A stretch of DNA of 64,000 nucleotides from Candidatus Avelusimicrobium gallicola (GCA_020722185.1 DYLH01000005.1:269-64268); one strand, 5' to 3'; shown: positions 38,166 to 61,952, counted from the stretch's first letter. A program made the numbers and translations. Notes: generated by a model from the letters alone, not told the origin.

Positions 38166-40037
38166 TTATCGCCCTGAATATCTGGAATAGTCGTAACTGT
38201 AATATCCATATTTTGGGCCCATTTCAGAAGCCCTCACGCCATTTAGCACAACTCCTATCATTTTTGCTTCAACACCGTTTATCTGATCTTTTGCTCTCTT
38301 CAGAGCTCCGCGAGCTATTTTACCAGCTTTATAAACGAGAACCGCTCCATCATTTTTTTTAGCAAGTATAACGGAATCTATAAAGAGAAGAACAGGAGGC
38401 GCATCAAAAACCACTATATCAAATTCAGATTTTGCAAAAGATATAAATTTCTCCCAGTCAGCATTGTCTAAGAGATCAACCACATTTGCTGGCGTTGTTC
38501 CACAGGAAATTATCTTAAGATTTTCTATACCCTGAAATCTTATCACCTGAGAGGAGTCAAGCCCTCCGGTAATAAAATCTGCGCTTTCTCTTAAAGTTTC
38601 TCTATAATCCACTTTCCCCACTAGGAGATCGCTTAATCCGGGCTGTTTTGGCAAACCGAATACCTGATGTATCACAGGCCTTCGCATATCAGCGTCTATA
38701 AGCAAAGTTTTAAGTCCAGAATGAGCGCTGGCCAGAGCGAAATTTATCGCCGTTAAAGTCTTTCCTTCCGCAGCTCCAGAAGAACTAATAACAACCGAAA
38801 CAGAGCCTTTTTGTGATATATTGGATATAATATTGGCGCGCAAGGTATGATAAGACTCTATGATGCTACTTGAATATTTTCTATTGAACAGCAAAACACT
38901 TCTAAATGCGTCTAGGCCAAAACGTTCTTTCCTGAATATTTCAGTGAGCATATTGTCTATTCTGTGTTCACTAGCTATGTTTGGTATTATTCCTAGCACC
39001 GGCAGATTTATAAAGTTCTCTATTTCCTCTATAGTGCTGATGGAAACATCTAAATTTTCAAGCAAGAAAACAAAAACCACAGATAAGAAAGCGCCAAGCA
39101 AAATTCCTACGGTTAAATTGAGCCTTTTATTTGGAGAGACAGGGACTGTATTGGGAAAAGACGGGTTTACCACGCTTACAAAGGATACAATAGAAGAAAG
39201 CCCAAGCTTAGCCTCCTCGTACTGCTTGCTTATCGTGGCATAAAGGTCTTCCTGAAGTCTTAGATCCCTTGTTATTCTGGCTAGGTCTAATTCCTGAGCC
39301 GGAATCTGAGATAATCTATTCTGCATATTCTCTATTCTTTTTTCTATAGAGTTTATTTCGGGATGGTTTGGGGTATATTTTTCCAGAAGTTCTTTTCTTT
39401 TTATTTCAAGTTCGGCAAGCTGATCTGCATAATAACCACCTATGCCAGTTTTTGGATTTTTCTCTATAAAATTTTTCTTTCGTTTTTCCAGTTCCTTAAG
39501 TTTTTCCTCTATATCATTTTTTCTAGAAACAATATCTTCAAGGGTCTTTCTTGCCTGAGCGCTTTTCTGCTCTAAATCATATTCTCTATACGCATTAATA
39601 ACAGCGTTGATTATATCATTGGCTTTGTAAGGATTGTCAGTTTTTGATGTTATTTTTATCAAGTTTGAATCCTGCACCCTTTCAGCATAATAAGACCCAA
39701 GAACCTCACTGGCCGACAATCTTATTGAAGAATTACTTTCTTGCATCTTGAGATTTATTATTCCAGCCGCTCGAGAAGCTATTTCCATTGAGCCTATAAC
39801 TCTTATCTCAGTTGAAACAGCTCCCCAAGGATCAATTGAAGATATATCTGATCCAGGAAGTTTTGAATAGATATTGGGCGGTTGAGTGTTTATAATGGCA
39901 GAAGAGCTGTATATAGTAGGCTGAAATCTGGTGTATATAAGCGTTGAAACTATTGTAGATACAAAAACTAAAAGCGCAGTCCACTTTCTCCTGTTTATTA
40001 TTCGCCAGTAATCATGAAGTGTAAGTTCGGTATTCAT
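38166..40037 (-). CDS. wzc: Polysaccharide co-polymerase / BY-tyrosine kinase (Wzc-like, PCP-2a)
   Basis: N-terminal Wzz domain (TLHDYWRIINRRKW plus TM). Periplasmic coiled coil and a second TM. Walker A SSSGAAEGKT, Walker B IVVFDAPPV. Tyr-rich tail YGYYSYDYSRYSGR. Confidence 0.8.
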   Translation of the reverse strand: MNTELTLHDYWRIINRRKWTALLVFVSTIVSTLIYTRFQPTIYSSSAIINTQPPNIYSKLPGSDISSIDPWGAVSTEIRVIGSMEIASRAAGIINLKMQESNSSIRLSASEVLGSYYAERVQDSNLIKITSKTDNPYKANDIINAVINAYREYDLEQKSAQARKTLEDIVSRKNDIEEKLKELEKRKKNFIEKNPKTGIGGYYADQLAELEIKRKELLEKYTPNHPEINSIEKRIENMQNRLSQIPAQELDLARITRDLRLQEDLYATISKQYEEAKLGLSSIVSFVSVVNPSFPNTVPVSPNKRLNLTVGILLGAFLSVVFVFLLENLDVSISTIEEIENFINLPVLGIIPNIASEHRIDNMLTEIFRKERFGLDAFRSVLLFNRKYSSSIIESYHTLRANIISNISQKGSVSVVISSSGAAEGKTLTAINFALASAHSGLKTLLIDADMRRPVIHQVFGLPKQPGLSDLLVGKVDYRETLRESADFITGGLDSSQVIRFQGIENLKIISCGTTPANVVDLLDNADWEKFISFAKSEFDIVVFDAPPVLLFIDSVILAKKNDGAVLVYKAGKIARGALKRAKDQINGVEAKMIGVVLNGVRASEMGPKYGYYSYDYSRYSGR

Positions 40038-40038
40038 A

Positions 40039-40716
40039 CTACCTTCTAATCAACACAATTCCGAATGTAAAAAGCATAGTCCATGGCATAAGGTTATCCG
40101 TTATCCATTTCCCAGCTGAGGTGAATTTCTTTCTTGGGATGTAAACTATATCTCCAGGCGAAAGTTCTATGTTTTTCTCAGTATTACCCTTAAACAATTC
40201 ACTTAGATCAATCTCAAAAGAAGATTTAATTGTTTCTCCCTTTTCATTCTTCTTATTTCTAAAAATTCTAATATTCTCAGTATCGGGATAATCAGAAAAT
40301 CCTCTGGCGCTAGATATCAGATCAAGAATTCGCATTCCTTCGTAGTAGTCATAATATCCTCCCCATTGAACTTGACCTATAACACCTACTTTATAAGTGG
40401 AAAATTTTCTCACACTGACAGTTACTTTTGGTTCTGAAACATATTTTGAAAATTTAGATGTAAGAATTTTTTCAAGTTCAGAAGCCCTAATTCCAGAGAC
40501 CTTTATAGCGCCAAGTAATGGCAATTCTATACTGCCATCTGGTTGAACAGTAACCTCCTTGGAAAATTCATCAGCGGGATACACATTTATATCCACAATA
40601 TCTCCAGCTGAGATGAAATAATCTTTTTCACCTAAAGAGGGGATTTCAAATGAGTAAACTGGAAAACCTGACAAATTGATGGCAAAAGATATCAAAAAAG
40701 CAAACATTTTTCTCAT
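40039..40716 (-). CDS. wza: Outer-membrane polysaccharide export protein (Wza/OPX-like, short form)
   Basis: Signal peptide present. Poly_export motif ISAGDIVDINVY...VQPDGSIELPLLGAIKVSG. SLBB-like LSPGDIVYIP. C-terminal hydrophobic helix. Confidence 0.75.
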   Translation of the reverse strand: MRKMFAFLISFAINLSGFPVYSFEIPSLGEKDYFISAGDIVDINVYPADEFSKEVTVQPDGSIELPLLGAIKVSGIRASELEKILTSKFSKYVSEPKVTVSVRKFSTYKVGVIGQVQWGGYYDYYEGMRILDLISSARGFSDYPDTENIRIFRNKKNEKGETIKSSFEIDLSELFKGNTEKNIELSPGDIVYIPRKKFTSAGKWITDNLMPWTMLFTFGIVLIRR

Positions 40717-40748: not shown

Positions 40749-41309
40749 TTATATACTTTTACCAGCGGCTCTGGAAAGAGTTTTTACTATTGCTTTAAGC
40801 TCCGCAACCTTATCTTCAAGCTCTTTTATTTTTCTATCATCAAAAGAAACTGAAGAATTAGAAAATGTTGAAACCTTCCTTTCAAGCTCAGAAATCTTGT
40901 ATATCAAATCATCATTTCTGCGCTGAGCATAAGAAGCAAATACTATATAACGAAAAAATGCCATAAATGACACTAGAGAAAAAAGCATAAAAGAAACTCC
41001 ACCAACCATGCTTATATACTCTCTATCCGAAAAAATTCCTATCAAAAGAACTATTATCGATGCAAGCATTCCAAAAAGCAGGGCTTCTTTATTTTCACTC
41101 CAAAGAATATTGAATTTAGGATTTATTGGACGATCAGATAATGGTCGCTGATGAGAAGGCAGCGGAATATTTTGCGGCATTTGAATATTCCCTCTAACCG
41201 CAAGAGAATGTGGCTGAGATGGTTTTTCTATATCTTCCTCTGTGTGATAAAAAGACGTTTCAACCTTTAACTTTTCAAGCATTGATCTTAGATCTTCATT
41301 TTTTTTCAT
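40749..41309 (-). CDS. Hypothetical membrane anchor: P/Q-rich N-terminus, two TM helices, C-terminal coiled coil
   Basis: Hydrophobic helices LLFGMLASIIVLLIGIF and VGGVSFMLFSLVSFMAFFRYIVF, then ISELERKV...KELEDKVAELKAIVKTL. No recognisable family. Confidence 0.5.
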   Translation of the reverse strand: MKKNEDLRSMLEKLKVETSFYHTEEDIEKPSQPHSLAVRGNIQMPQNIPLPSHQRPLSDRPINPKFNILWSENKEALLFGMLASIIVLLIGIFSDREYISMVGGVSFMLFSLVSFMAFFRYIVFASYAQRRNDDLIYKISELERKVSTFSNSSVSFDDRKIKELEDKVAELKAIVKTLSRAAGKSI

Positions 41310-42030
41310 CTTTATTCTCCGACATTTTTGAAAATGAGTATTTTCTCTCCCAGTCGGCTATCTTTTCTTGTTTTCTTATGATTTCTTTTTCTCTATTTTC
41401 TAAATCTAACCTTACCTTTTCAAAAGTTCTTATCAAGTCCTTTTTCTTATTTATAAAATCTTCACTAAGAATTTTCTCTTTTGTTTTTAATTCTGCCATC
41501 TTTCTTGAATAATCTTTTTCCATAGCCAAATGCCTGTTTTCCAACTCTCTGTTTTTCTCTTCCCATTTTTTCAACATAGCATCTTCTTTAATCCTGATTT
41601 CCTCGTAGAGTGACTGCGCCCTAGAAGAATATTCCATTGTCAATTTGGTCTTCTCCAGAGCCACTTCAGCCTTTATTTCTGCCTTTTCTGCCTCAAGCTT
41701 TTTTACAGCCTCTTTTAAATCCCTCAATTCATCATAAGTTTTTACATTTTCCTCAGATAGTTTGTTGTTTATTTCTTTAAGTTTTAATAGTTTCAATTCA
41801 AACTCGGATTCTATTTCCTTTTTTTCTTCTTTAAGGGCTTCCAATCTTTTTTTGAAATCCTCTGTAGTTTTTCCAGCAAGATCCTCATAGGAAATAATTT
41901 CATCTTCAAATTCTTCAAGTATGGTAGACAACTCCACAGAAGAAGGATTTTTATACTGCCAGAGTTTTTCAGCAAATTCTTTAAGTCTTGCTAAAAAGGA
42001 TGAGGGGACGCATTTAAGTTCTTTTTTCAT
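41296..42030 (-). CDS. Hypothetical coiled-coil protein (244 aa)
   Basis: E/K-rich heptad-like sequence after a ~60-aa N-terminal region. 2 nt downstream of the giant gene; 14-nt overlap with the next gene. Confidence 0.5.
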   Translation of the reverse strand: MKKELKCVPSSFLARLKEFAEKLWQYKNPSSVELSTILEEFEDEIISYEDLAGKTTEDFKKRLEALKEEKKEIESEFELKLLKLKEINNKLSEENVKTYDELRDLKEAVKKLEAEKAEIKAEVALEKTKLTMEYSSRAQSLYEEIRIKEDAMLKKWEEKNRELENRHLAMEKDYSRKMAELKTKEKILSEDFINKKKDLIRTFEKVRLDLENREKEIIRKQEKIADWERKYSFSKMSENKDEKK

Positions 42031-42032: not shown

Positions 42033-45000
42033 TTACCTGGCCTTATTTTTATATTCAGCAATAGTCCTTGTAAGTTCAAGACGCAAATTCTCTATTTCAG
42101 ACTGACGCTTGGCATATTCTCTTTCAAGATCCAATCTTCTGGTCTCAAGCTCTCTTTCTCTCTTTTCAAACTCTTCAGCTTTCCTTGCGTTTTCCTTATC
42201 AATCTCAGTTAATTTTTCTTGAAGTTTTACTTCCATTTCATTCAAGCGAGACTGCTTCAATGAAAGCATAGAGTCTTTTGCCGACATATTCTTTTCCATT
42301 TCTTCAATGGTCTGCTGCATCTGTGCTACCCTCTTATTGTACAATTCTTTAAGGGAGTTATTTTCCTGGATAAACTTTTCTTCCATAGCAGCCTGCTCTG
42401 CTCTGTAAGAGGCGAGAGTTTCTGAAAATCTCTTTTCCTCTTGCGCCAAATGTTGCGCAAGCATAGAAGAATAGTTGTCTCTGTATTTAGATATTTCCTC
42501 TTTAAGTTTTTCCATTTTCTCTTCAGCTTCTTTCATAGCAGCATCCTTTTCAGCTAAAACACTAAGCATTCTTTCCTTATCTGCTTTGTAACTTTCTCTC
42601 ATCTTTTCTATTTCATACACGCTTCTTTCATTAAGCTCTACTAATTCTCTTTGGGTGATATCCAACTTTTCTTCAAGCATAGCAGTCGCTCTTGAAACGG
42701 CTTCTGCCAATCTTTTATTAAAATCCTTTGACATTGAATCTACAATTTGAGCTTTTTCCTGAGAGAATTCTTTCGCCATTTCAACAGCTTCCTGTGTCAG
42801 TTGAGATTCTCTTTCTTTTGATTGTATCAATTCGGCGCTTAAAGCCGATATTCTCTCTTTTAGAGAAGACGATTCCTTTCTTAAAGAATCTTCTTTCATA
42901 CTAAATTCTGATTTTATATCTTCTATCTGAGACTTCATAGAATTTTCCAAATCAGCTTTGGCTTTTTTATACTTTTCTGCATATATCTCAGCTTGTTTTC
43001 GAGAAACTTCATTTTGGAAAGATTCCATTTTTTCATCCATTTCCCTTTGAAAAGCAGAAAGTCTCTCAGAAAGAGATTTTATTTCTTCATCTTTTGAATT
43101 AAGTATTCTGAAACTCTGGCTCAATTCCTCCTCATAGGCTAGGATCTTATTATTAAGAGATTCAGTTTCTGCTTTGACCTGTTTTTCTATCCTTTGAGAA
43201 AATTCCGACTCCATTTCAGCTTTCTGCTGAGCAAGAAGTCTTCTTGAATTTATTTCCAGATCCGCAAGTTTGCTGGATAAATCTTTGTTCTCTTCAATAG
43301 CGCTGGCTAGTTTTTCTTTTACTTGACCTAATTCAAAAACAGCCGCATCTGCTATTTTTTCAAGATGCTCTTTTTCTTTACCCCAATTAATTCTTTCCTT
43401 ATCATACACTTCCTTATGCATTTCAAGATTTTGCTGATATTCCTGCTCATATTGTTTTTTTATATCTTCAATTTTAGACTTCGATTCTTCTCTAATCTCT
43501 CTTATAGAAACTTCATTTTCCTGTTTGTATTTTTCAGAAATTTTCCTTAATCTGAAATCAAAATCTTTTTCCCTTGACAAAATTTCACTGCGAAGCCTTT
43601 CTATTTCTTCATTTAGGCTATTTGTTTCTTTAACCCTGAGAACTCTCTCTTTTTCCTTTTCAGATTTAAGCTCATCCATCTCTTTTTTCATCTGAGAATA
43701 AAAAAGATTCTTTTCTTCCTGAATTTCTTTTTTTCTATTTTCAAATTCAAGAGATATTAGCCTTATTTTTTCAGCATAATCTTGAGACAATGAATTTCTT
43801 AAAGAATTTTCACTCTCTCTATGTTTTACTTCAAGAGATTCAATAGCCTCACGGAACTCAATATCTTTATCTGTAAGTTTTTTCTCATAGTCTTTTATAA
43901 TATCCTCATATTTTTTTTCTATTTGAGCTTTTTCCTCTTCAAGAGATAAAGCTCTGGCCTGATATTCCTGCTCCCTTTGAGAAATTTGTTGTCTGAGATG
44001 ATCCGATATTGCGGCTTTTTCTTGTGAAAATTTCACAAACAAATCTGATATCTTGCTCTCATATTCAGAAACCATTTTTTCATACTTATCTTTTTCTTCT
44101 TTGAGAGCCACTTCATCTTTTTGTTTAAGTTCAGAAATCAATTTTTCATATTCAGATTTGAGTTTCTCGGAATTCTTCTCAAAATCTTTCGTAAGAGAAA
44201 GGATTATTTCCTCTTTATCTTTTAAGAGAGCTGATAGAGTAGCATCTTTTTGCGCTATCTCATTATCAAAAGATTTTGAAATTTCTTTTCTTTTAGTTCT
44301 TTCATTTTCAAGCAAAATCATCATTTCATTTTCATACTTTGACTTTGCTTCTTCATAAGTGGCTTTTAAATTAGCTACCTTTTCCTCAAAACGTTTTCTC
44401 AAATTCTCCATTTCTTTATTGTGCCTTTCTTCTATTTCTTTTTCACGCTCATTAAAATTTGCCATTAGTTGATTTTTTAATTCTTCTTTTTCCGCTGAGA
44501 CTAATTTAAGCTTTTCATTTATTTTGTTTAACTTTTCCTCGTAATCTGCCTCAATAGCAGTTTTCTCTTCTTCATATTTCATCAAAATATCGTCTTTCTC
44601 AGCAGAAGCTTTTAGCAAAACATCTCCCATAGCTTGCCAAAAAGATTGTCTCATTTCTTCTTTTTGTTGAGAAATTTTTTCAATTTCTTTTTCCCATTTA
44701 AGAGCGCTTTCCTGATTTTCTTTTCTAAGGTTTATGATGGCTTCATCTTTTTCTTTACTAATACTTGATATCTTAGACTCATAAAAAGATATCCTCTCGC
44801 TGATTTTATCTTCTAAAGATTTTTTCTCTATTTCCATTTGATTTTTTAAGTTCTCAATGGAATTTTTCAAATCGGTTCTCTCTTTGTCAAATTCTGACTC
44901 TTTTATGGATAAAGTCTCCTGCCATTGACTATTTGTCTTTTCAATCTTTTCTCTAAGCTCTTTTTCTTTTTTATTAAGCAATTCTTCAAGCTCTTTTATC

Positions 45001-48000
45001 TTTTCACTTCTTGCCACCAGCTCCCCGGAATATTTCTTTTCGTATTCACTTCTAAGGCTTAGATTCTCACCTATAAACCTCTCTTCCATCTCTTTCTTCT
45101 CAGCTTCAAAGCGAGATTTTATCTCTTTTATCTTATCGCTATTTACCGCCTCTTTTTGCTCAAGTTCTAAAATTAATTGCTTTTCCCTCTTCTCATATTC
45201 AGCTTTTATATCTTGTATCTGACTCGCAAATTCGCTTCTGGCCTTCTCTAGTTCTAGCGAATATTCCTTCTCTTTCTTAGCTATATCTTCAGACAGCTTT
45301 CTTACTTCAACCTCTTTGCCTAAAATAGCATTCTCATAATCCGCCTTAATCAATGAAAAAGAATTCTTAAGCTCTTCATTCGCTGACAAAAGCTCACTCT
45401 CCCTATGTGAAAACTCTTTCCTTAAATCCCCTAAGGCTTTTTCACGCTCGGCTATAAAGCGGCTCTCTGTCCTAGAAAGAAGTTCTTGCATCTCTCCAAT
45501 CCTTTTTTGCGCATTCTCTATCCTTGCAATATATGTCGCGGCTATTGAAGCTTTTTCTTCTTCGTTTTCACTTCTCACCGCGGACAGCTGTTCAAGATAA
45601 TAATCCTCTTTGGCTTTAAGCGCTGACTCCATATCTTCTCGATACTTCTGCGATAACTCATTCTTCTCTTTGATCAGCTCATTCTTTAATTCCTCTATCT
45701 TGTCTTCATATTCTTTATTTAATAAACCTATCTTCTCAATAAGAGAATTTTTCTCTGTTTCTATCTTCTCTTTATTTTCCTCTATCTTTTTTAACTTTAT
45801 CTCAAAATTCTTCTCTTTTTCCTCAAGCGCCTGGGACATCTTCTGCTCAAATTCTGACTCTTTTATGGATAAAGTCTCCTGCCATTGACTATTTGTCTTT
45901 TCAATCTTTTCTCTAAGCTCTTTTTCTTTTTTATTAAGCAATTCTTCAAGCTCTTTTATCTTTTCACTTCTTGCCACCAGCTCCCCGGAATATTTCTTTT
46001 CGTATTCACTTCTAAGGCTTAGATTCTCACCTATAAACCTCTCTTCCATCTCTTTCTTCTCAGCTTCAAAGCGAGATTTTATCTCTTTTATCTTATCGCT
46101 ATTTACCGCCTCTTTTTGCTCAAGTTCTAAAATTAATTGCTTTTCCCTCTTCTCATATTCAGCTTTTATATCTTGTATCTGACTCGCAAATTCGCTTCTG
46201 GCCTTCTCTAGTTCTAGCGAATATTCCTTCTCTTTCTTAGCTATATCTTCAGACAGCTTTCTTACTTCAACCTCTTTGCCTAAAATAGCATTCTCATAAT
46301 CCGCCTTAATCAATGAAAAAGAATTCTTAAGCTCTTCATTCGCTGACAAAAGCTCACTCTCCCTATGTGAAAACTCTTTCCTTAAATCCCCTAAGGCTTT
46401 TTCACGCTCGGCTATAAAGCGGCTCTCTGTCCTAGAAAGAAGTTCTTGCATCTCTCCAATCCTTTTTTGCGCATTCTCTATCCTTGCAATATATGTCGCG
46501 GCTATTGAAGCTTTTTCTTCTTCGTTTTCACTTCTCACCGCGGACAGCTGTTCAAGATAATAATCCTCTTTGGCTTTAAGCGCTGACTCCATATCTTCTC
46601 GATACTTCTGCGATAACTCATTCTTCTCTTTGATCAGCTCATTCTTTAATTCCTCTATCTTGTCTTCATATTCTTTATTTAATAAACCTATCTTCTCAAT
46701 AAGAGAATTTTTCTCTGTTTCTATCTTCTCTTTATTTTCCTCTATCTTTTTTAACTTTATCTCAAAATTCTTCTCTTTTTCCTCAAGCGCCTGGGACATC
46801 TTCTGCTCAAATTCTGACTCTTTTATGCGCAGTCTTTCATTTAACTCAAATATCTCATTTTGTTTAGCTAAAATCTCTTCCTCAAATTTTTTTGAAAGAT
46901 TTTCAATCCTTTGCTGATATGACTTTTCGCTCTCTACACGCATATCTTCCATAGCTTTTTGAGAAGATTCAATGCTTTTCTGATATTCCTTAAGCAATCT
47001 TTCTTTTTCCTGAGCATACTTCATTTCTATTTCATGAAGAGTCTCTCTGAGTTTTTCATTTTCTTGATTGAGTCTGCTTCTTTCTGCCTCAAAGGCACTT
47101 TTGTCGCTTATAAATTTTTGCTCTGTTTCACTGATTTTTAATATCAGCTCCTCGTCAAATCTTTTTTTGATTTCTATTATCTTATTTTCAAGATTTTTTA
47201 TCTGTTCTTGAGCCTGCCAGTATTTTTCAGCCATTTCTTTTGCGCTTTCTTCAAGTCTTGCTCTCTCTTTATCCCATGCCATATGCAAAGACTTTATTTC
47301 TTTTTTTCTCTCTTCCTCTATAGACATAAGCCTATTGTTCATATTAAAAGCAAGACTCTCTTTATACTTCTCATAAGCCTGAGAGACTTCTTCTTTTTTT
47401 GCTATGTACTCAGCTTCCAAAGCCGCCTGTCTATTTTTTATCCATTCTTCTTTCTCTTTTGCAGAATTTTCCAGAAAATTTACTCTCTCCATAAGCTCTT
47501 TTTCTCTATCTGAGTATGAAGCCTGAAGAGATGAAATTCTCTTATCATAGGATCTCTGAAGCTCAATATTCAGCTCATCATATTTTTTCTGAGCTTCTGC
47601 AAGTTTTTGTGAGTACTGGCTTTCAGTTTCAAGCAGACGCCTATTCCAGTTTTCAACCATATTTTTTTGAGATTTATCCAGCTCTTCAAATTTTTTCTGA
47701 TAGTCATTCTCAAGCTCGCGTCTGAGTATATCTATTCTGGCCTCTTTTTCAATAAGTTGTCTCACATCCAGTTTGCCCTCTCCAAGCAACTGCATTGTGG
47801 CTTCAAGTTTCCTGTAAAATTCTTCCTTATCTTCAACAGTTTTTATCCTTGCGGAAAATGAATCGCGGATATTTTCAAGTTTTGCGGATAACTCTTTATT
47901 TGAATTTTCAGCTATTTCAAGATTTTTTCTCAATTCAGAGCCTTCTTTTTCCATTCCTGAAATCTTTTCCAAAGCCCAACGCAAGGTCATTTTTGCTGTA

Positions 48001-48053
48001 TCGAGACTTGAAACCTCGCTTATGAGATTCTCTATTTCATTCTTTTCTTTCAT
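42033..48053 (-). CDS. Giant coiled-coil protein (2006 aa), no enzymatic or membrane motif recognised
   Basis: One uninterrupted ORF. E/K/L/I/S-dominated heptad-like sequence end to end. No signal peptide, TM helix or Walker A. GGAG 8 nt upstream of the ATG. Contains a 320-aa exact internal duplication. Confidence 0.7.
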   Translation of the reverse strand: MKEKNEIENLISEVSSLDTAKMTLRWALEKISGMEKEGSELRKNLEIAENSNKELSAKLENIRDSFSARIKTVEDKEEFYRKLEATMQLLGEGKLDVRQLIEKEARIDILRRELENDYQKKFEELDKSQKNMVENWNRRLLETESQYSQKLAEAQKKYDELNIELQRSYDKRISSLQASYSDREKELMERVNFLENSAKEKEEWIKNRQAALEAEYIAKKEEVSQAYEKYKESLAFNMNNRLMSIEEERKKEIKSLHMAWDKERARLEESAKEMAEKYWQAQEQIKNLENKIIEIKKRFDEELILKISETEQKFISDKSAFEAERSRLNQENEKLRETLHEIEMKYAQEKERLLKEYQKSIESSQKAMEDMRVESEKSYQQRIENLSKKFEEEILAKQNEIFELNERLRIKESEFEQKMSQALEEKEKNFEIKLKKIEENKEKIETEKNSLIEKIGLLNKEYEDKIEELKNELIKEKNELSQKYREDMESALKAKEDYYLEQLSAVRSENEEEKASIAATYIARIENAQKRIGEMQELLSRTESRFIAEREKALGDLRKEFSHRESELLSANEELKNSFSLIKADYENAILGKEVEVRKLSEDIAKKEKEYSLELEKARSEFASQIQDIKAEYEKREKQLILELEQKEAVNSDKIKEIKSRFEAEKKEMEERFIGENLSLRSEYEKKYSGELVARSEKIKELEELLNKKEKELREKIEKTNSQWQETLSIKESEFEQKMSQALEEKEKNFEIKLKKIEENKEKIETEKNSLIEKIGLLNKEYEDKIEELKNELIKEKNELSQKYREDMESALKAKEDYYLEQLSAVRSENEEEKASIAATYIARIENAQKRIGEMQELLSRTESRFIAEREKALGDLRKEFSHRESELLSANEELKNSFSLIKADYENAILGKEVEVRKLSEDIAKKEKEYSLELEKARSEFASQIQDIKAEYEKREKQLILELEQKEAVNSDKIKEIKSRFEAEKKEMEERFIGENLSLRSEYEKKYSGELVARSEKIKELEELLNKKEKELREKIEKTNSQWQETLSIKESEFDKERTDLKNSIENLKNQMEIEKKSLEDKISERISFYESKISSISKEKDEAIINLRKENQESALKWEKEIEKISQQKEEMRQSFWQAMGDVLLKASAEKDDILMKYEEEKTAIEADYEEKLNKINEKLKLVSAEKEELKNQLMANFNEREKEIEERHNKEMENLRKRFEEKVANLKATYEEAKSKYENEMMILLENERTKRKEISKSFDNEIAQKDATLSALLKDKEEIILSLTKDFEKNSEKLKSEYEKLISELKQKDEVALKEEKDKYEKMVSEYESKISDLFVKFSQEKAAISDHLRQQISQREQEYQARALSLEEEKAQIEKKYEDIIKDYEKKLTDKDIEFREAIESLEVKHRESENSLRNSLSQDYAEKIRLISLEFENRKKEIQEEKNLFYSQMKKEMDELKSEKEKERVLRVKETNSLNEEIERLRSEILSREKDFDFRLRKISEKYKQENEVSIREIREESKSKIEDIKKQYEQEYQQNLEMHKEVYDKERINWGKEKEHLEKIADAAVFELGQVKEKLASAIEENKDLSSKLADLEINSRRLLAQQKAEMESEFSQRIEKQVKAETESLNNKILAYEEELSQSFRILNSKDEEIKSLSERLSAFQREMDEKMESFQNEVSRKQAEIYAEKYKKAKADLENSMKSQIEDIKSEFSMKEDSLRKESSSLKERISALSAELIQSKERESQLTQEAVEMAKEFSQEKAQIVDSMSKDFNKRLAEAVSRATAMLEEKLDITQRELVELNERSVYEIEKMRESYKADKERMLSVLAEKDAAMKEAEEKMEKLKEEISKYRDNYSSMLAQHLAQEEKRFSETLASYRAEQAAMEEKFIQENNSLKELYNKRVAQMQQTIEEMEKNMSAKDSMLSLKQSRLNEMEVKLQEKLTEIDKENARKAEEFEKRERELETRRLDLEREYAKRQSEIENLRLELTRTIAEYKNKAR
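44887..46827. repeat. Perfect tandem duplication, 960-bp unit, 2.02 copies, in frame
   Basis: Line-by-line comparison shows every base from 44887-45867 is identical to 45847-46827 (offset 960). The 21-nt TCAAATTCTGACTCTTTTATG occurs at 44887, 45847 and 46807. Confidence 0.95.
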
Positions 48054-50467: not shown

Positions 50468-51418
50468 TTAGTTGAAAAGCTCGCTTATAGATTCTCTCAA
50501 ATGGTTTCTTCTAATAGCTTCTGCTAAAATACCGGAAACCGATACACTCCTTATTTTAGCACTTTTTGAGGCATCAATTCCAATGGTATCTGTCAAAACC
50601 AACTCTTCTATAGGCGATTTATCTATTTTTTCAATGGCATTTAAAGAGAGAACACCATGAGTGCAGCAAGCTATTATCTTGGACGCTCCCCGCTCCTTTA
50701 TAGTCTTGGCGACCTCAGTTAATGTGCCGGCAGTATCCACAAGATCATCAAATATAATGCAATTCATCCCCTCTACGCTACCTATGACATTGAATACTTC
50801 CGCTTGATTTGGCTTTGGTCTTCTTTTGTCTATTATCACCAATCCCAAATCAAGCCTCTTGGCAAAAGACCTTGATCTTTCCACACTCCCCACATCTGGG
50901 GATACAACAACCATATTTTCCAGATTTTTATTTCTTATGTAATCAAGTATCACCGGCCTTGCATAAAGATGGTCGAGAGGTATATCAAAAAATCCCTGTA
51001 TCTGAGGCGCATGAAGATCTATCGTTATCACTCTGTCAGCCCCAGCTTCAGTTATTAGATTGGCCACAAGTTTTGCTGTTATGGCCACTCTTGGCGCAGG
51101 TTTTCTATCAGCTCTGGCATAGCCGTAATAAGGGATAACCGCAGTTATTCTACCCGCCGATGCCCGTCTAAGAGCATCCATCATTATCAATAGTTCCATC
51201 AAATTTTCATTTACTGGATTGCATGTGGATTGTACTATATAACAATCCTCGCCCCTTACATTTTCAAGTATATGAACATCTATTTCCCCATCTGCAAAGC
51301 GCGAAACCTTAGAACTGCTAAGCGGTATGCCAAGATGCTCGCATATCCTAGTCGCCAACTGTGGATTTGAATTACCACAAAAAACTCTCATAGAACCGCT
51401 TTTCCAGTATTCTTTCAC
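50468..51418 (-). CDS. prs: Ribose-phosphate pyrophosphokinase
   Basis: DLHAPQIQGFFDIPLDHL and the PRPP loop IIFDDLVDTAGT. GTG start gives a GTGA overlap with glmU. Alternative ATG at 51391 (MRVFCGNSNP). Confidence 0.9.
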   Translation of the reverse strand: MKEYWKSGSMRVFCGNSNPQLATRICEHLGIPLSSSKVSRFADGEIDVHILENVRGEDCYIVQSTCNPVNENLMELLIMMDALRRASAGRITAVIPYYGYARADRKPAPRVAITAKLVANLITEAGADRVITIDLHAPQIQGFFDIPLDHLYARPVILDYIRNKNLENMVVVSPDVGSVERSRSFAKRLDLGLVIIDKRRPKPNQAEVFNVIGSVEGMNCIIFDDLVDTAGTLTEVAKTIKERGASKIIACCTHGVLSLNAIEKIDKSPIEELVLTDTIGIDASKSAKIRSVSVSGILAEAIRRNHLRESISELFN

Positions 51419-52803
51419 TTTTTCCTCCTATACTTTATAACCTGTCTTGCCCTGGCAAGCGCTAGAGAACCTTCAGGCACATCCTCAGTTATGGTGGAAC
51501 CTGCGCCTATAAGAGCCCTTTTACCAACCTTAACTGGAGCAACCAGATTTGTGTTTGAACCAATAAAAGCTTCATCATCAATGTAAGTTTTATTCTTTTT
51601 TACTCCGTCATAATTGCATGTTATAGTGCCGGCACCTATATTGACTTTTTCACCCATATAGGTGTCTCCAATATAGCTTAAATGAGGCACTTTTGAACCT
51701 TTGCCTATGAAAGACTTTTTCACTTCTGAAAAATTGCCAACTTTTGCCCTTTGACTTAAAACTGTCTCCGGTCTCAAATGAGAAAATGGCCCAATATTCA
51801 CATTTTCGCCCGCCTTGCTTGAATAAAGACAGGAAAAAGGTTTTATCTCGCTTCCTGAATCTATTTCGCAATCTTCTATGACACAATACGGTCCTATTAC
51901 GCAAGATTTGCCAATTTTGGTTTCACCTCTTATGACAACGCCAGGATATATTGTGGTATCCTTGCCTATCTTTGACTCCATGGAAATATAAATATTTTCT
52001 GGATCCACTATATTGACGCCTTCTTCATAGAGTTGTTCAATCTTTCTCTTAACAGAACGCATATATAAATCGGAAAGCTCTTTTTTTGAATTTACTCCAG
52101 TTATCTGAATTTCATCCTTTATCCTATAAAGCTCTGTTTTACCTCTGTTTGAGTATATGTAAGAGATACAATCTGTCAGATAATATTCTTTTTTTGGCCC
52201 TTGTGGTTTAAGAGAAGAAAGAGCTTTTTTAAGAATTTTTGTTCTAAAAATATAAATGCCAGAGTTTATTTCCTTTATCAAAAGCTGATCAGAATCTGCG
52301 TCCGAAGCCTCAACTATCGCCTTAAAATTACTCTTGTCGTCCCTTATTATACGGCCATAAGTTTTGGCATCTTCCACATGACAGCTGAGGACAATACAAT
52401 CGCATCTTGTTCGGAAAAACTTATCTGACATTTTATTAAGAGTTGATTCTTTTATAAGTGGCACATCCCCTGAGAGTATCATAACAGAATCTGAAACTGA
52501 AACACTTTCCAGAGATTCAAGAACAGCCCTTCCACTACCTTTCAAAAGTTTCTGTCTGACAAAAACAACCTCAGTAGCTGTATTAATGTTTTGGAGCCAT
52601 TTTAAAACAAAAGACTCCACATCATCCGCTTTGTGACCAACAACTACTATCGCTTTATCTGGATTTAGAGATAAAGCTGTCTTTAAAACCCGTATTATCA
52701 AAGGAACCCCATCAAATTTGTGAAGCACTTTTGGATAATCTGATTTCATCCTGGTGCCAAGACCGGCGGCAAGCACTATTACAGAAAGTTTATTATTGGA
52801 CAT
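51415..52803 (-). CDS. glmU: Bifunctional UDP-N-acetylglucosamine pyrophosphorylase / GlcN-1-P acetyltransferase
   Basis: VIVLAAGLGTRMKSDYPKVLH. C-terminal left-handed beta-helix hexapeptide repeats. 462 aa. Confidence 0.9.
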   Translation of the reverse strand: MSNNKLSVIVLAAGLGTRMKSDYPKVLHKFDGVPLIIRVLKTALSLNPDKAIVVVGHKADDVESFVLKWLQNINTATEVVFVRQKLLKGSGRAVLESLESVSVSDSVMILSGDVPLIKESTLNKMSDKFFRTRCDCIVLSCHVEDAKTYGRIIRDDKSNFKAIVEASDADSDQLLIKEINSGIYIFRTKILKKALSSLKPQGPKKEYYLTDCISYIYSNRGKTELYRIKDEIQITGVNSKKELSDLYMRSVKRKIEQLYEEGVNIVDPENIYISMESKIGKDTTIYPGVVIRGETKIGKSCVIGPYCVIEDCEIDSGSEIKPFSCLYSSKAGENVNIGPFSHLRPETVLSQRAKVGNFSEVKKSFIGKGSKVPHLSYIGDTYMGEKVNIGAGTITCNYDGVKKNKTYIDDEAFIGSNTNLVAPVKVGKRALIGAGSTITEDVPEGSLALARARQVIKYRRKK

Positions 52804-53684: not shown

Positions 53685-54785
53685 CTAATCTTTGACATAA
53701 AACCGCGGCACCCTTTGCATAACAAGAGTAGCTATTTCATAACCTATGGTTCCAGCCCACTTTGCAAGCTGATTTACGCTTATTCTCTCATTTTCGCTTT
53801 CTCCAAGAAGTATAACCTCATCTCCCACTTTTGCTTTTTTTACGGCGCTTATGTCCACCATTGTCATATCCATAGTGACATTGCCTATCACTGGACATCT
53901 CTTTCCAGATATAAGAACATAAGCCTTGTTTGAAAAAGCTCTTAGATAACCATCTCCATATCCTATTGGCAGAGTGGCAACCCTGATGTTTTTTTGGGCT
54001 TTGAATGTTTTGTTATAGCTTATGAAGGAGTCTTTCTTTACTGTTTTGATAAATACTATCTTGCTTTTAAGACTGAGCACCGGCTTAAAGCCATCTACTC
54101 CTCCATATGCCGCCCAGCCACATCGCGCCATATCAAAACGCGCCTGAGGAAAATTTATTAAACCAGCGGAATTGGCTATATGTCTTAAAATATTTCTATC
54201 CTTGCTATAACTATCAGTTATGAGTTTGAATAATTCTATTTGTTTAAGGGAATATCCTTTATCAGTATCGGCGCTGGAAAAATGACTATATAAACCCTCG
54301 ACATATATATTTTCTGATTTTTCAATCGTATCCATTATGTCTATAAAGGCTTTATGACTGACGCCAATTCTATTCATACCGGTTTCAATTTTGATATGGC
54401 ATGGGACTTCTTTGCCTGATTTCCGGGCTGCCATTTGAAGTTCTTTTGCCCCCCATAAGCTTGAAACTGTGGGAGTGAGATCATATCCCGGAAAAGCCAG
54501 AAAATTTTTCATTGGATAAACGCTTCCAAAAACCAGAATAGGCATCTTTATGCCTTTTTCCCTCAGTATGATACCCTCTTCTATTGAAGATACGCCAAAG
54601 CAGTCACAAAGTTTTTTATCTTGCGCAAATGAGGCCACTTCAACTATGCCATGTCCATACGCATTAGCTTTTACGACAAACATCAGTCTTCTTATACTTC
54701 CCAGAATTTTTTTAAGCTTTTTGAGATTGTAAGACAAGTGTGACAAATTTATTTCAGCATGAGTGGGTCTGTATATGTCGCCCAT
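53685..54785 (-). CDS. alr: Alanine racemase
   Basis: FVVKANAYGHG PLP-lysine motif; 366 aa. Confidence 0.85.
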   Translation of the reverse strand: MGDIYRPTHAEINLSHLSYNLKKLKKILGSIRRLMFVVKANAYGHGIVEVASFAQDKKLCDCFGVSSIEEGIILREKGIKMPILVFGSVYPMKNFLAFPGYDLTPTVSSLWGAKELQMAARKSGKEVPCHIKIETGMNRIGVSHKAFIDIMDTIEKSENIYVEGLYSHFSSADTDKGYSLKQIELFKLITDSYSKDRNILRHIANSAGLINFPQARFDMARCGWAAYGGVDGFKPVLSLKSKIVFIKTVKKDSFISYNKTFKAQKNIRVATLPIGYGDGYLRAFSNKAYVLISGKRCPVIGNVTMDMTMVDISAVKKAKVGDEVILLGESENERISVNQLAKWAGTIGYEIATLVMQRVPRFYVKD

Positions 54786-57793: not shown

Positions 57794-58519
57794 TCAGCGC
57801 ATTTTTTGCAAGGAGCGTCTGGCAGCCGAAAGTTTTTCAGGATCGCCTATATCATGCCAGAGTCCGCTTTCATATTCAAAAAAGGATATTGGCTCCCCTT
57901 TCTTAGATATTTCCAAATAAAGTTCTGTCAGAGAAAATTTTTCTTTTTCAGGAAAAAAGTCGAAGATTTCTGTGGAAAGCAACTGTATTCCGCAAAATGG
58001 CATCTCAGTTTCCTTTTCTGTTGGTCTGGAAATTATTCTTTCTTGAGTTTTCAAATTGCTCCATCCACAAAGCAAACCTTTTTCGTCGAAAATAAATTTT
58101 CTGGAAGATGGACGTTTTTTCACTGCTAAAACTCCTTTGTACTTGTCTTGCGCAAATTTCTTTTTGAGAAAATTTAGATCAAAATCGCATAAAATGTCGC
58201 AATTGTAGACAAAAAAACTCTCATCCCCCTTAAAAAACCATGAAGCTTTTTTCAATCCACCGCCAGTATCGAGCAAATATTTTTCTCTTGAAATTTCCAT
58301 ATCAACGCCAAAATTATTGTTCTTGCGCAAGAATGATTCCACCTTTTCAGCCAGATGCCAGGTGTTTATTATAAACTGAAAAACACCAGCCTTTTTAAGA
58401 GTCAAGATTGACCTCTCAAGCATTGTAATCCCATCTATTTCTATCAGAGGCTTTGGGATTGAATCTGTTATAGGCCTAAGCCTCTCTCCTCTTCCAGCAG
58501 CAAGTATCATAGCTTTCAT
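57794..58519 (-). CDS. Sugar-1-phosphate nucleotidyltransferase (MurU-like)
   Basis: MKAMILAAGRGERLRPITDSIPKPLIEIDG. Start moved to 58519, 1 nt after the upstream stop. Paired with an AmgK-like kinase, as in the MurNAc salvage route. Confidence 0.65.
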   Translation of the reverse strand: MKAMILAAGRGERLRPITDSIPKPLIEIDGITMLERSILTLKKAGVFQFIINTWHLAEKVESFLRKNNNFGVDMEISREKYLLDTGGGLKKASWFFKGDESFFVYNCDILCDFDLNFLKKKFAQDKYKGVLAVKKRPSSRKFIFDEKGLLCGWSNLKTQERIISRPTEKETEMPFCGIQLLSTEIFDFFPEKEKFSLTELYLEISKKGEPISFFEYESGLWHDIGDPEKLSAARRSLQKMR

Positions 58520-58520
58520 A

Positions 58521-59963
58521 TTACTTCCCCAACTCGCGATGAGAAATCTCAACTTTTAATCCTTTTAATCCTTTCAAGGCTGAAGCCAATTTTTCGGCCA
58601 TATACACCGATCTATGCTGGCCTCCAGTACATCCAAAACACACAGATAAATCTGTAAAATTTCTTGATAGATAATTGTCAATCGCCTGAGAAACAAGAGA
58701 AAAGGCGCCATGGGAAAATTTTTCCACTTCAGGGCTTGAAGCTAAATACTTAGCCACATCTCTGTCTTTTCCTGTAAGATTTTTGTATTTTTCTTCCCTA
58801 CCTGGATTTGGCAAGCACCTACAATCGAAAACAAATCCGCCATTGTGACCACTAAAATCCTGAGGGATACCATTCCTATACGAAAAACTGGATATTTTAA
58901 CAGTGAGTCCAAGTTTTTTAGAGCCAAAATTTCTAAGATATGTTGAGGCGACTATTCTTTTGAAAACTCTATTTAGTTCTGGAAGTGTCAAAGGCATTTG
59001 AGCATGCGAAAGCAGCCACTCCATATTCTTTATTACATATGGAACACTTTGAAGGAAATGAGTTTTCTTTTCATAGAAACCTCTCAGGCCATAAGCTCCC
59101 ATTGCCTGCATTAATCTTATATACACGAAAGGATAATAGAATTTTAAAAACTCTTCTTTATCCACAACATTTTTTATCTCAGGCAAATTCAAATAGTAGT
59201 CAAGCAATTCCAACCTTAGCTCAGGGCTTAGATCAGCTTTTGCGTCAAAAAGCAAAGAAGCCACATCATATTGCAAAGCTCCGCGCCGCCCCCCTTGATA
59301 ATCTAAGAAAAAGACTTCTCCATCTTTTACCATTATATTTCTTGACTGAAAATCGCGGTAGAGAAAAAAATCGCTTTTAGCTTGAACAAGCAAATCACAC
59401 AAGAATATGTAATCATCCTCCAATTTTTGTTCATTGAATGATATGCCGCCAAGCTTTACAAAGTAGTACTTGAAATAATTCAAATCCCACAACATTGACT
59501 GTCTGTCAAAAGAAGCGCGAGGATAGCAAAGTTTGAAATTAAAGTTTTTAATGCCATAAACTTGAAATTTAGCCAGATGAAAAAGAGATTTTTTATAGAG
59601 TTCAACTACTTCTGATGTGATGATATTCTCTTTTCTTGATGAACTTATGGCATCAAAAAGTGTGGTATCTCCAAGATCTGTTTCGAGATATATCTTATTA
59701 TTCTCCTCATAGGCATATATCTCAGGTACTGGCATCCCTATGGATTTGAAGTGGCGAGAAAATCCGACAAAGGCATTGTTTTCCAATCTATCGGGGCCAT
59801 AGACTCCGACAATGGAAAAATCGCCTGACTTAATGCGAAACAACTTGCGATTCGAGCCATCCGCTCTTAAATCCAGTATCTCAGAAGGCTTCTTTGAAAA
59901 GGTTTCTGAAAAGAGAGCTGAAAGATCCTTATAACACTTTTCTTTTACCTTTTGTTCAAGCAT
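58521..59963 (-). CDS. Fusion protein: APH-fold sugar kinase (AmgK-like) plus RapZ C-terminal domain
   Basis: Kinase core FLYRDFQSRNIMVKDGEVFFLDYQGGRRGALQYDVASLLFDAK. C-terminal ~140 aa has SFSYRNGIPQD...FDCRCLPNPGREEKYKNLTGKD...GCTGGQHRSVYMAEKLA, matching the conserved RapZ/YvcJ C-domain motifs. Confidence 0.65.
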   Translation of the reverse strand: MLEQKVKEKCYKDLSALFSETFSKKPSEILDLRADGSNRKLFRIKSGDFSIVGVYGPDRLENNAFVGFSRHFKSIGMPVPEIYAYEENNKIYLETDLGDTTLFDAISSSRKENIITSEVVELYKKSLFHLAKFQVYGIKNFNFKLCYPRASFDRQSMLWDLNYFKYYFVKLGGISFNEQKLEDDYIFLCDLLVQAKSDFFLYRDFQSRNIMVKDGEVFFLDYQGGRRGALQYDVASLLFDAKADLSPELRLELLDYYLNLPEIKNVVDKEEFLKFYYPFVYIRLMQAMGAYGLRGFYEKKTHFLQSVPYVIKNMEWLLSHAQMPLTLPELNRVFKRIVASTYLRNFGSKKLGLTVKISSFSYRNGIPQDFSGHNGGFVFDCRCLPNPGREEKYKNLTGKDRDVAKYLASSPEVEKFSHGAFSLVSQAIDNYLSRNFTDLSVCFGCTGGQHRSVYMAEKLASALKGLKGLKVEISHRELGK

Positions 59964-59966: not shown

Positions 59967-61952
59967 TTATTGCTTTGTCTCAGTTTTTTCTGCCTGTGCA
60001 TTGGCACCTATACTTTTGAGGAAAGCATCCATCTGCACTTCTCGCCCAAGAAATTGCTTTACTTGCTCGTTCTCATCCACACTTCCGCCTTTTGAAAGCA
60101 CACAGTCAATATATCTCTTGCCTATTTGGGGATTCAATATTCCCTCTCTTTCAAAAACTGAGAATATATCCGCAGCTATGACTTCACTATACAAATAACT
60201 GTAATATCCCGCCTGATATCCACCCATCAAATGGCCAAAACTGGCTTGAGGGTGAGTGCCTGGCGTCATTGGAATAAAGAATGTTTTTTTCATTAGCTTT
60301 TCATAAAGCGCCGTGGTATCTAATTTGCCATTTTTGGTGTGATACTTTATATCCAGTATGCTAAAAAAAATCTGCCTTAGATAAAAAAGGCCGCTATCCA
60401 TATTTTTGCTGTCTATCAACCTTTTTATTATATCCTCTGGCAATTTTTCACCAGATCTGTAATGAGATGAGATCTTATTCAAAACCTCTGGATAGTAAGC
60501 CCAGTTCTCAAGCATCTTTGAAGGGACTTCAACAAAGTCCATAGCAGTACTTGTCCCAGAAAAACGGCCATACTCTGATTTCGTGAATATATTGTGTGTC
60601 ACATGTCCAAACTCATGAAAGAGTGTGACCACCTCGTCAAATTTTAAAAGTGAAGGGGTATCTTTAGTGGGAGGTGTAAAGTTTGATACAATAGCAGCGG
60701 CTGGAATTTGATATACATTACCCTCCAATCTTCTCCCTTTTCTTATGCCAAAACATGCGGCATGTTTATATTTCCCCTCGCGAGGAAAGAGGTCGAAATA
60801 GAAGTAGGCAAATGTTTTGCCAGAACTATCTTTTACTTCATATGTTCTTACATCACTATGCCATTTATCCAGAGCAGAAGGCTCAAACTTAACACTAAAG
60901 ACTGATCCAAATATGTCAAACATTCCACTTATAACTGTTTCAAGAGGAAAATATTCCTTTATCTTTTCGTGATCAATTGAATATTTCTCCTTTTTTAGAA
61001 GATTGTTGTAGAATCTCCATTCCCAGTTATTCATTGTCTTTTCTTGAGATTGGGAAATTTTCTTTTTCAACTTAAGTCTTTCCTTCAACTCTTTCTTTCC
61101 TTTTTTGAGAACTGCTTTCTTCAAATTTTCAATTAAAGCTAAAACATTTTCAGCATTCTTAGCCATTCTATCGGCCATAGCATAATCCGCAAAAGTTTTA
61201 TATCCCAACATTCTAGCTATTTGCGATCGAAGTTTTATAGCCTTCTCCATAAGAGGAACATTTTTTTCATGGCATCTATTATTGAAAAGGAATTCCATCT
61301 TTTTTCTTGTTTCTGACACACTACAATTATCCATAAGAGGCATATAGTCGGGATAATTAGTTGTAACTATGTATTTGCCATCTTCGCTTTTTTTCAATCT
61401 GCTTTTATAGTCCTCTCCCATACCTTCAAGTTCGGCTTCGCTAAACTGGGCGAAATCAGAAGATTCCCTTAAATTTTTTGAGAACTCAAGCTCTAGATTA
61501 ACCAATTCCTTTAGCATATTTTTAAGCTTTTCTCTTTTCTTATTTTCTAGACCAAGACCATTTTGCTTAAACTCAAAAAGTGTTTTATCCAAAATCCTTT
61601 TTTCCACTTCTCCTATATTCTCGCCCAAGGAGGCATATTCGCTTATGGCTTTGTAGACATCTTCTCTCGTGTAAATATCTATAGAGTACTGGTTTATTTT
61701 AAGCTCTAACTCCTGAGCAGCATTTCTCATCTGCTCATTGTCTGAGACATATGCCATAAATATTGGAATATTAACGTAATCGCTAAAGTCGCTCAGGGCA
61801 TTTTCAAAAGCTGCAACTGTATTGTGAAAATTTCTCTTTTCTTTTGGCATTGAAGCAATCAAGGCAAGTCTTCCTTCAAGAGTTTTTATAGCTGTATCTG
61901 CAACTGAATTGATATGTTCCACAGAAATATTAAAAGCAGGCATCTGATTCAT
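59967..61952 (-). CDS. M3-family zinc oligopeptidase (thimet/Dcp/oligopeptidase A-like)
   Basis: LFHEFGHVTHN HExxH motif; 661 aa; M3A-like layout. Confidence 0.85.
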   Translation of the reverse strand: MNQMPAFNISVEHINSVADTAIKTLEGRLALIASMPKEKRNFHNTVAAFENALSDFSDYVNIPIFMAYVSDNEQMRNAAQELELKINQYSIDIYTREDVYKAISEYASLGENIGEVEKRILDKTLFEFKQNGLGLENKKREKLKNMLKELVNLELEFSKNLRESSDFAQFSEAELEGMGEDYKSRLKKSEDGKYIVTTNYPDYMPLMDNCSVSETRKKMEFLFNNRCHEKNVPLMEKAIKLRSQIARMLGYKTFADYAMADRMAKNAENVLALIENLKKAVLKKGKKELKERLKLKKKISQSQEKTMNNWEWRFYNNLLKKEKYSIDHEKIKEYFPLETVISGMFDIFGSVFSVKFEPSALDKWHSDVRTYEVKDSSGKTFAYFYFDLFPREGKYKHAACFGIRKGRRLEGNVYQIPAAAIVSNFTPPTKDTPSLLKFDEVVTLFHEFGHVTHNIFTKSEYGRFSGTSTAMDFVEVPSKMLENWAYYPEVLNKISSHYRSGEKLPEDIIKRLIDSKNMDSGLFYLRQIFFSILDIKYHTKNGKLDTTALYEKLMKKTFFIPMTPGTHPQASFGHLMGGYQAGYYSYLYSEVIAADIFSVFEREGILNPQIGKRYIDCVLSKGGSVDENEQVKQFLGREVQMDAFLKSIGANAQAEKTETKQ

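Follow-up and report, generated by a model that had tools for sequence, protein, structure and literature searches.

An AmgK-like kinase fused to a RapZ C-terminal domain and coupled to a MurU-like nucleotidyltransferase in Candidatus Avelusimicrobium gallicola and other bacteria

A stretch of 64,000 nucleotides from Candidatus Avelusimicrobium gallicola (GCA_020722185.1 DYLH01000005.1:269-64268; the whole of this stretch is termed the window) was found to encode a 480-aa protein in which a kinase of the aminoglycoside phosphotransferase (APH) fold, most similar to AmgK, is fused to the C-terminal domain (CTD) of RapZ, with a gene for a MurU-like sugar-1-phosphate nucleotidyltransferase (NTase) lying immediately downstream. 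This is a widespread and undescribed domain architecture that bears on the function of the RapZ C-domain; a literature search found no paper naming RapZ together with AmgK or describing a kinase-RapZ_C fusion. The two genes are best read as a conserved module that would activate a free cell-envelope sugar to a nucleotide sugar, most likely one of the uridine diphosphate N-acetylmuramic acid (UDP-MurNAc) type. The features of the two genes are as follows.

58521 to 59963, minus strand: fusion gene for the AmgK-like APH-fold kinase and RapZ C-terminal domain, 480 aa (open reading frame (ORF) with its stop codon included; Pfam APH and PF22740)
58944 to 59963, minus strand: kinase domain, residues 1-340, APH / COG3178-type fold (NCBIfam AmgK models; 3csv alignment; Foldseek)
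59301 to 59354, minus strand: catalytic loop D204-x4-N209 and Mg-binding D221, DFQSRN...LD (translation; conservation)
58908 to 58943, minus strand: linker, residues 341-352 (poorly conserved, mean top-residue frequency 0.15)
58524 to 58907, minus strand: RapZ C-terminal domain, residues 353-480 (PF22740; phmmer; structure model of the CTD alone by AlphaFold2 (AF2); Foldseek)
58836 to 58853, minus strand: family-specific Gly-rich segment SGHNGG, residues 371-376 (gap in the Escherichia coli alignment; translation)
58605 to 58634, minus strand: phosphate-binding loop GCTGGQHRSV, residues 444-453, equivalent to E. coli G246-V255 (translation; conservation)
57794 to 58519, minus strand: MurU-like NTase gene, 241 aa (PF00483, E 4e-22; MurU NF045761 as best match)

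Gene coupling, distribution and reality of the fusion

Translation of the fusion ORF showed that all of the kinase and RapZ motifs quoted in the initial annotation are present in the 480-aa product, namely YRDFQSRNIMV (residues 202-212), LDYQGG (220-225) and YDVASLLFD (232-240) in the kinase part, and SFSYRNGIP (359-367), FDCRCLPNP (379-387), LTGKD (396-400) and GCTGGQHRSV (444-453) in the C-terminal part. A database protein (P0001) was found to be 100% identical to the fusion protein, with the same domains. The junction of the two genes reads GGG AAG TAA T ATG AAA, placing the ATG of the NTase (58517-58519) 1 nt past the fusion stop, the spacing that the initial annotation had given; the 241-aa NTase ORF starts MKAMILAAGRGERLRPIT. 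No terminator-like site was found between the genes in a scan of the fusion region, and promoter-like sites in that region occurred at the frequency expected from shuffling (20 vs 20.3), rendering the promoter scan uninformative.

Comparison of 80 loci showed a MurU-like NTase directly downstream of the fusion in 79, commonly with a 4-nt overlap of start and stop, the 80th locus stopping where the match ends. Furthermore, in six independent 50%-identity clusters the kinase, RapZ_C and NTase were identified on one polypeptide of 714-816 aa, and one of these clusters has five members, which come from NCBI, ENA, JGI and Logan assemblies on contigs of up to 102 kb. The coupling proposed in the initial annotation is thus stronger than could be seen from the sequence alone. 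The triple-fusion proteins are P0188, P0209, P0220, P0222, P0230 and P0258 (e.g. L083:8001-10169), with tmk upstream and rpsO-pnp downstream.

Apart from the NTase, no conserved neighbour was found across the loci compared, and a divergent gene of the inositol-monophosphatase family was present in none of the 80. The fusion lies in neighbourhoods of housekeeping genes (tmk, rpsO-pnp, the rpsF operon). A second upstream paralogue suggested by clustering was rejected, since it arose by chaining from ORFs that had been extended too far in high-GC loci.

The fusion was found to be widely distributed. The best 120 90%-identity clusters (54-100% identical) all combine APH and RapZ_C in approximately 470-498 aa and derive mostly from metagenome-assembled genomes (MAGs) of Elusimicrobiota. 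An exhaustive HMMER scan of 50%-identity representatives gave 8830 matches, the best 150 being almost all full-length fusions of 38-55% identity, and an approximate scan with one genome per species indicated that at least 593 species genomes encode a relative of the fusion; the best 80 genome matches each align over essentially the entire protein. Hosts include Elusimicrobia, many Acidobacteriota (Terriglobia, on contigs of up to 4.8 Mb), Calditrichia, some genomes labelled Bacteroidota, Lentisphaeria and others, with a Bacteroidales member situated on a 160-kb contig. Some MAG labels are possibly mis-binned, and the phyla regarded as robust are Elusimicrobiota, Acidobacteriota, Calditrichota and Bacteroidota. 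A frameshift joining two genes, which the initial annotation had named as the artefact to be feared, or an error of assembly, was rejected because the same architecture recurs in these hundreds of clusters and species; the fusion is therefore real, and the family is strongly constrained. One exception was P0263 (624 aa), a high-GC copy with a frameshift, in which the C-terminal half reads out of frame as sequence rich in Arg, Pro and Gly. Another protein, P0251 (345 aa), is kinase-only and 50% identical to the N-domain, being either a truncated call or a genuine stand-alone form.

Kinase and nucleotidyltransferase

The APH domain (PF01636) was located by Pfam at residues 34-259 of the fusion (E 4.9e-8). 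The sole NCBIfam kinase matches were the AmgK models NF045759 (E 2.6e-17, residues 13-311) and NF045698 (E 7e-14), and all 56 members of the family alignment matched the same three NCBIfam families (two for AmgK and one for RapZ) and nothing else. The best solved relative of the kinase is 3csv, a 'putative aminoglycoside phosphotransferase' of Silicibacter sp. TM1040, to which the family profile aligned end to end (residues 22-331) and which was the top Foldseek match (target-normalised template modelling (TM) score 0.77), other APH structures also being matched. The two share the motifs GDAS-R--R-, -RDF---N and IDFQ; 3csv differs in having no C-terminal RapZ domain, in its uncharacterised function and in an identity of approximately 19% to the kinase. 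The domain thus groups with the AmgK type that the initial annotation had proposed, AmgK models being the only kinase families matched in all 56 members and 3csv belonging to the same kinase subfamily. The kinase is AmgK-like as a nearest-family assignment, below the equivalog level.

Conservation was computed as mean top-residue frequency over 131 representatives of 50%-identity clusters. The kinase reached 0.49, above the linker at 0.15 and below the CTD at 0.59. Residues D204, Q206, N209, D221 and Q223, together with R39 and E61, are at least 97% invariant, and with its catalytic residues intact the kinase is predicted to be competent.

The NTase gave MurU (NF045761) as its best NCBIfam match, with the next family more than 50 bits behind, and carries the nucleotide loop LAAGRGERLRP, corresponding to the motif LAAGxGxRxRP. 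Its best matches in the PDB were the MurU structures 8hhd and 4y7t, over the N-terminal half (E 1.5e-25 and 1e-22). MurU was also the best match for the NTases of Acidobacteria, Calditrichia and Elusimicrobium minutum and for the NTase domains of the triple fusions; among the stand-alone genes it exceeded the next model (Arch_glmU or mannose-1-phosphate guanylyltransferase, depending on the locus) by approximately 35-55 bits. The NTase is accordingly MurU-like, again as the nearest family and below the equivalog level.

By analogy with these nearest families, the APH-fold domain would use ATP to phosphorylate the anomeric hydroxyl of an amino sugar, which may be MurNAc and/or N-acetylglucosamine (GlcNAc), and the translationally coupled NTase would convert the resulting sugar-1-phosphate to a UDP-sugar (UDP-MurNAc in the AmgK/MurU paradigm). 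A number of results weigh against this assignment. The scores with the AmgK models are far under the equivalog cut-offs (63 vs 550 for NF045759; 51.8 vs 500 for NF045698), and that of the NTase is likewise under the MurU cut-off (148 vs 250 bits). Because the scores lie below these cut-offs, the identity of the sugar, and also that of any ligand of the CTD, can only be suggested. Alignment of the C-terminal, sugar-binding half of the NTase to MurU 8hhd reached only 4.6 bits, and for this reason the sugar may not be MurNAc. Identities of more than 50% across phyla, together with the housekeeping neighbourhoods, fit a core function better than optional salvage.

The low scores, the divergent half of the NTase and a degree of conservation and contexts unusual for a salvage route all favour a different substrate from MurNAc or GlcNAc; examples are a further hexosamine, a heptose or, by a logic of the LicA/LicC type, an alcohol that is not a sugar, e.g. 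choline. A large polysaccharide cluster in the window, though not adjacent, points the same way, and a different substrate would be compatible with any role of the CTD. Against it stand the kinase matches of all 56 members, which were to AmgK models only, the lead of MurU over the next NTase model across phyla, and the match of the NTase to the choline cytidylyltransferase LicC in the PDB, which was at E 3e-8 compared with 1.5e-25 for MurU. A different substrate is considered unlikely, though still a real candidate. A choline-kinase/LicC-type pair in particular was downgraded, the LicC match being far weaker than that to MurU and no choline-kinase model having been matched.

RapZ C-terminal domain and its proposed role

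Pfam identified RapZ_C (PF22740) at residues 354-478 (E 1.8e-36, covering positions 2-120 of the 121-position profile and scoring 125.4 bits where the cut-off is 27), and phmmer matched the domain to residues 148-280 of E. coli RapZ (E 5e-19). The AF2 model of the full-length fusion had a predicted local distance difference test (pLDDT) score of 89.4 and a predicted TM score (pTM) of 0.83, and that of the CTD alone a pLDDT of 93.4. Foldseek aligned the latter to 5o5s, the E. coli RapZ CTD, with TM scores of 0.84/0.91, a root mean square deviation of 2.0 Å and 39% identity; only RapZ entries were returned at E <= 0.001, the next matches having E > 0.04 and low TM scores. The RapZ homology that had been noticed at the end of the protein therefore holds over residues 353-478 by both profile and structure searches, and sequence and fold alike place the fusion protein in the RapZ_C domain family. 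The full RapZ model of NCBIfam (NF003828) was matched at positions 155-278 of 278 only (114.5 bits against a cut-off of 244). As the match begins at position 155, the P-loop N-domain is absent from the fusion, and its replacement by an APH-fold kinase, which the initial annotation had suggested, is evident from the N-terminus. Tryptophan 191 of E. coli RapZ, which contacts the N-domain from the CTD, is Arg in the fusion family.

The initial annotation had offered two roles for such a protein: metabolite-sensing regulation of a cell-wall sugar kinase, or a RapZ-like RNA regulator with a different input. The second finds some favour in the RapZ_C fold, in the retention of the pocket by which E. 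coli RapZ touches the RNA backbone, and in the equivalents of E. coli K170, R184 and R196, which are still basic in the fusion family. The basic C-terminal tail of RapZ (RxRxKNxQxRHRTxxKRK) is, however, not present, the fusion protein ending in ISHRELGK; the family tail has a median net charge of 0, compared with +6 in E. coli RapZ. Moreover, the family does not keep the E. coli RNA contacts K194, R211, R238 and K251, and its CTD is almost neutral (median net charge +1, median isoelectric point 7.8). No Rfam family, GlmY and GlmZ included, was matched in the 64-kb window, and the constant pairing with an NTase suggests a metabolic role. Owing to the lack of a basic tail and the loss of these contacts, an RNA-binding regulator with a sugar kinase as its input domain is extremely unlikely, and the CTD would not serve as an RNA adaptor here. 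Of the two roles, metabolite-sensing regulation is the more likely. With both the P-loop N-domain and the RNA tail found to be absent, the protein does not belong to the family of full-length RapZ RNase adaptors. Many family members are named 'RNase adapter RapZ' in NCBI records (others 'phosphotransferase'); in view of these same absences, the former name is probably a systematic misannotation.

The conserved residues of the CTD were found to be concentrated around its pocket. At least 97% invariant are S359, F360, P367, G375, G376, F379, D380, C381, R382, N386, P387, G398, G444, C445, T446, G447, G448, H450, R451, S452, V453 and H475. According to the DSSP strings of the AF2 models, invariant residues are situated at the C-terminal ends of all four strands (S359/F360, D380/C381/R382, C445-G448 and H475), and they are predicted to line a single crevice, as in Rossmann-like active sites. 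The phosphate-binding loop keeps the equivalents of E. coli C247, T248, G249, H252 and R253 (C445, T446, G447, H450 and R451). In E. coli this loop is solvent-facing and ligand-binding (PMC5737377); Thr248, Gly249, His252 and Arg253 bind sulfate or malonate together with His190, at the proposed site for glucosamine 6-phosphate (GlcN6P) (PMC5737377; PMC7073468), and the isolated CTD binds GlcN6P (PMC7073468). The dimer strand is also conserved, FVFD (377-380) corresponding to E. coli Y179-V-F-D182, with F379 and D380 among the invariant residues.

From these data it is proposed that the CTD would dimerise the enzyme through its conserved FVFD edge strand, and that its Cys-Thr-Gly-Gly-x-His-Arg-Ser loop would bind the phosphate of a phospho-amino-sugar, possibly GlcN6P, GlcNAc 6-phosphate, MurNAc 6-phosphate (MurNAc-6P) or a UDP-sugar. 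Ligand binding might then adjust kinase activity, in a direction that can only be surmised, to the flux through de novo synthesis or recycling. This double role of the CTD, dimerisation of the kinase and tuning of its activity through a bound phospho-amino-sugar, is judged to have an even chance of being correct. A purely structural CTD, acting as a dimerisation module or as a scaffold that brings kinase and NTase together for channelling, and binding no small molecule, would also account for the conserved dimer strand, for genes that are translationally coupled and sometimes fused, and for the pTM, which suggests that the CTD is packed in a fixed position on the kinase. Such a role would leave unexplained the invariance (at least 97%) of the whole phosphate loop, with its Cys, His, Arg and Ser, which is ligand-binding in E. 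coli, and is regarded as highly unlikely.

Some features of the CTD weigh against a simple sensor. The E. coli pocket residue H190 is Gly in 125 of the 131 representatives, and, relative to E. coli RapZ, the fusion family carries an inserted Gly-rich stretch as well as another invariant Cys at C381. The insertion, which precedes the dimer strand, comprises residues 371-375 (of G-[HN]-G-G-G type), with G376 aligning to E. coli D178, and C381 (codon 58821-58823; E. coli V183) adjoins the dimer strand and could form a redox or metal site with C445, H450 and H475. Because of these three differences GlcN6P may not be the ligand, and the site resembles that of an enzyme more closely than a plain sensor. 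Furthermore, allosteric tuning of the kinase by the CTD is a prediction rather than an observation.

A catalytic CTD was considered in this light. It would depend on its Cys to act on an amino-sugar 6-phosphate, e.g. in the dephosphorylation of MurNAc-6P, and would constitute a third step in a line from sugar 6-phosphate to UDP-sugar. In Pseudomonas, MurNAc-6P is acted upon by MupP, a phosphatase of the haloacid dehalogenase (HAD) family. The sequence C445-TGGQH-R451-S452 has the C-x5-R-(S/T) spacing of Cys-phosphatase P-loops and forms, in the AF2 model, a loop between a strand (438-445) and a helix (451-463). The invariant residues at the strand ends, C381 and the Gly-rich insertion would all suit an enzyme, as would the better conservation of the CTD than of the kinase and its place in the middle of the triple fusions, with the kinase on one side and the NTase on the other. 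In E. coli RapZ, C247 lies beside the pocket and both C247A and C247S are inactivating, and the authors of that study suggest 'a specialised catalytic function' and report that the CTD pocket held a 'chemically transformed product' derived from GlcN6P (PMC9841335). Phosphatase activity of YvcJ and of HpaP is quoted in PMC7525490 and PMC9742497, in passages that do not assign it to the CTD.

Against a catalytic role, Foldseek with the CTD model matched RapZ only, with no protein tyrosine phosphatase (PTP), low-molecular-weight PTP (LMW-PTP), ArsC or EIIB fold among the matches listed, and the resemblance to phosphatases is therefore at the level of the motif only. A Cys-phosphatase fold of the PTP, LMW-PTP or rhodanese type was rejected for the CTD on the same result. 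In addition, no general-acid residue was identified in the CTD. A catalytic CTD is, on balance, unlikely, though a serious rival to the regulatory reading. The same holds for a broader proposal, to be entertained with little confidence, that RapZ_C was ancestrally an amino-sugar-phosphate enzyme employing the Cys of its C-x5-R-S loop, that it supplies a dephosphorylation or some other transformation in the fusion family, and that E. coli RapZ is a derived form moonlighting in RNA binding; if true, it would explain both the effect of C247S and the 'chemically transformed' GlcN6P of the E. coli CTD.

Genomic surroundings, known systems and significance

A peptidase gene was identified upstream of the fusion gene.

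59967 to 61952, minus strand: M3 oligopeptidase gene, ending 3 nt before the fusion ATG (Pfam Peptidase_M3, E 6e-138)

This gene is probably co-transcribed with the fusion gene here. Among the 80 loci an M3 peptidase adjoins the fusion only in the Elusimicrobium locus L001 (L001:6003-7976, a MAG of Elusimicrobium minutum, with a spacing of 10 nt); as it is not adjacent in other phyla, it looks like a lineage-specific extension of the operon. The genes on the same strand 3' of the NTase are rpsF-ssb-rpsR-rplI-dnaB-alr. Elsewhere in the window are glmU (51415-52803), alr (53685-54785) and murJ (2085-3542), whose coordinates agree with the initial statement that these cell-wall genes are present and not adjacent to the fusion gene.

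The polysaccharide cluster extends over approximately 23.6-40.7 kb and comprises genes for a Poly_export/SLBB protein (40039-40716) and a Wzz/GNVR tyrosine-kinase-like protein (38166-40037), as well as Wzy_C, a flippase, several glycosyltransferases (GT1/GT2/GT4/GT9), Asn synthase and WbqC. Between this export and assembly cluster and a 2006-aa ORF (42033-48053, minus strand) with no Pfam match at E <= 1e-5 lie two ORFs (40749-41309 and 41296-42030), also with no Pfam match. At 5158-8972 on the minus strand, a pair for the formation of fatty aldehydes was found in this lineage, which is not luminous: a LuxC-type acyl-CoA reductase carrying a fused AMP-binding domain (892 aa) and, beside it, an acyl-protein synthetase of the LuxE type (388 aa). 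A 1149-aa protein encoded at 11087-14536, minus strand, has NHL/beta-propeller repeats and C-terminal tetratricopeptide (TPR) repeats.

Two known systems resemble the module. The first is the AmgK/MurU salvage pair of Pseudomonas putida, P. aeruginosa, Tannerella, Legionella and Caulobacter, in which an APH-fold kinase is likewise followed by a small NTP_transferase in the same orientation; these are the best-matching characterised families for both enzymes, and their catalytic residues are intact here. The second is RapZ of E. coli, with YvcJ of Bacillus subtilis, which has a CTD homologous in sequence and fold, with the C-T-G-G-x-H-R-S loop and the dimer strand in common, and a shared link to amino-sugar and cell-envelope precursor metabolism. 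From RapZ and YvcJ the fusion differs in having neither the P-loop (Walker A/B) N-domain nor the basic RNA tail, in the replacement of H190 by Gly and of W191 by Arg, and in being obligatorily paired with an NTase instead of with ptsN/npr or glmR/whiA, which are the usual neighbours of rapZ and yvcJ (the yvcJ-glmR synteny being quoted in the literature). From AmgK/MurU it differs in that the family exceeds 50% identity across phyla in housekeeping neighbourhoods, and in its RapZ_C domain, the characterised AmgKs being stand-alone proteins of approximately 38 kDa that have none (PMC11957156).

The fusion family represents a natural domain swap, in which RapZ_C with an invariant phosphate loop has been placed on a sugar kinase, and sometimes an NTase, in proteins that have no RNA tail. 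RapZ is the textbook small RNA (sRNA) adaptor. Conservation of the fusion in several phyla, beside a MurU-like NTase, indicates that the RapZ domain probably acts in amino-sugar metabolism and not only in RNA control, and provides independent evolutionary evidence for RapZ_C as a phosphosugar-handling module of cell-envelope precursor metabolism. The fusion proteins offer RNA-free, soluble material for direct tests of the ligand specificity or catalysis of RapZ_C. For peptidoglycan recycling, they constitute a large uncharacterised AmgK/MurU-like clade, present in Acidobacteriota, Elusimicrobiota, Calditrichota and Bacteroidota, into which an additional domain is built.

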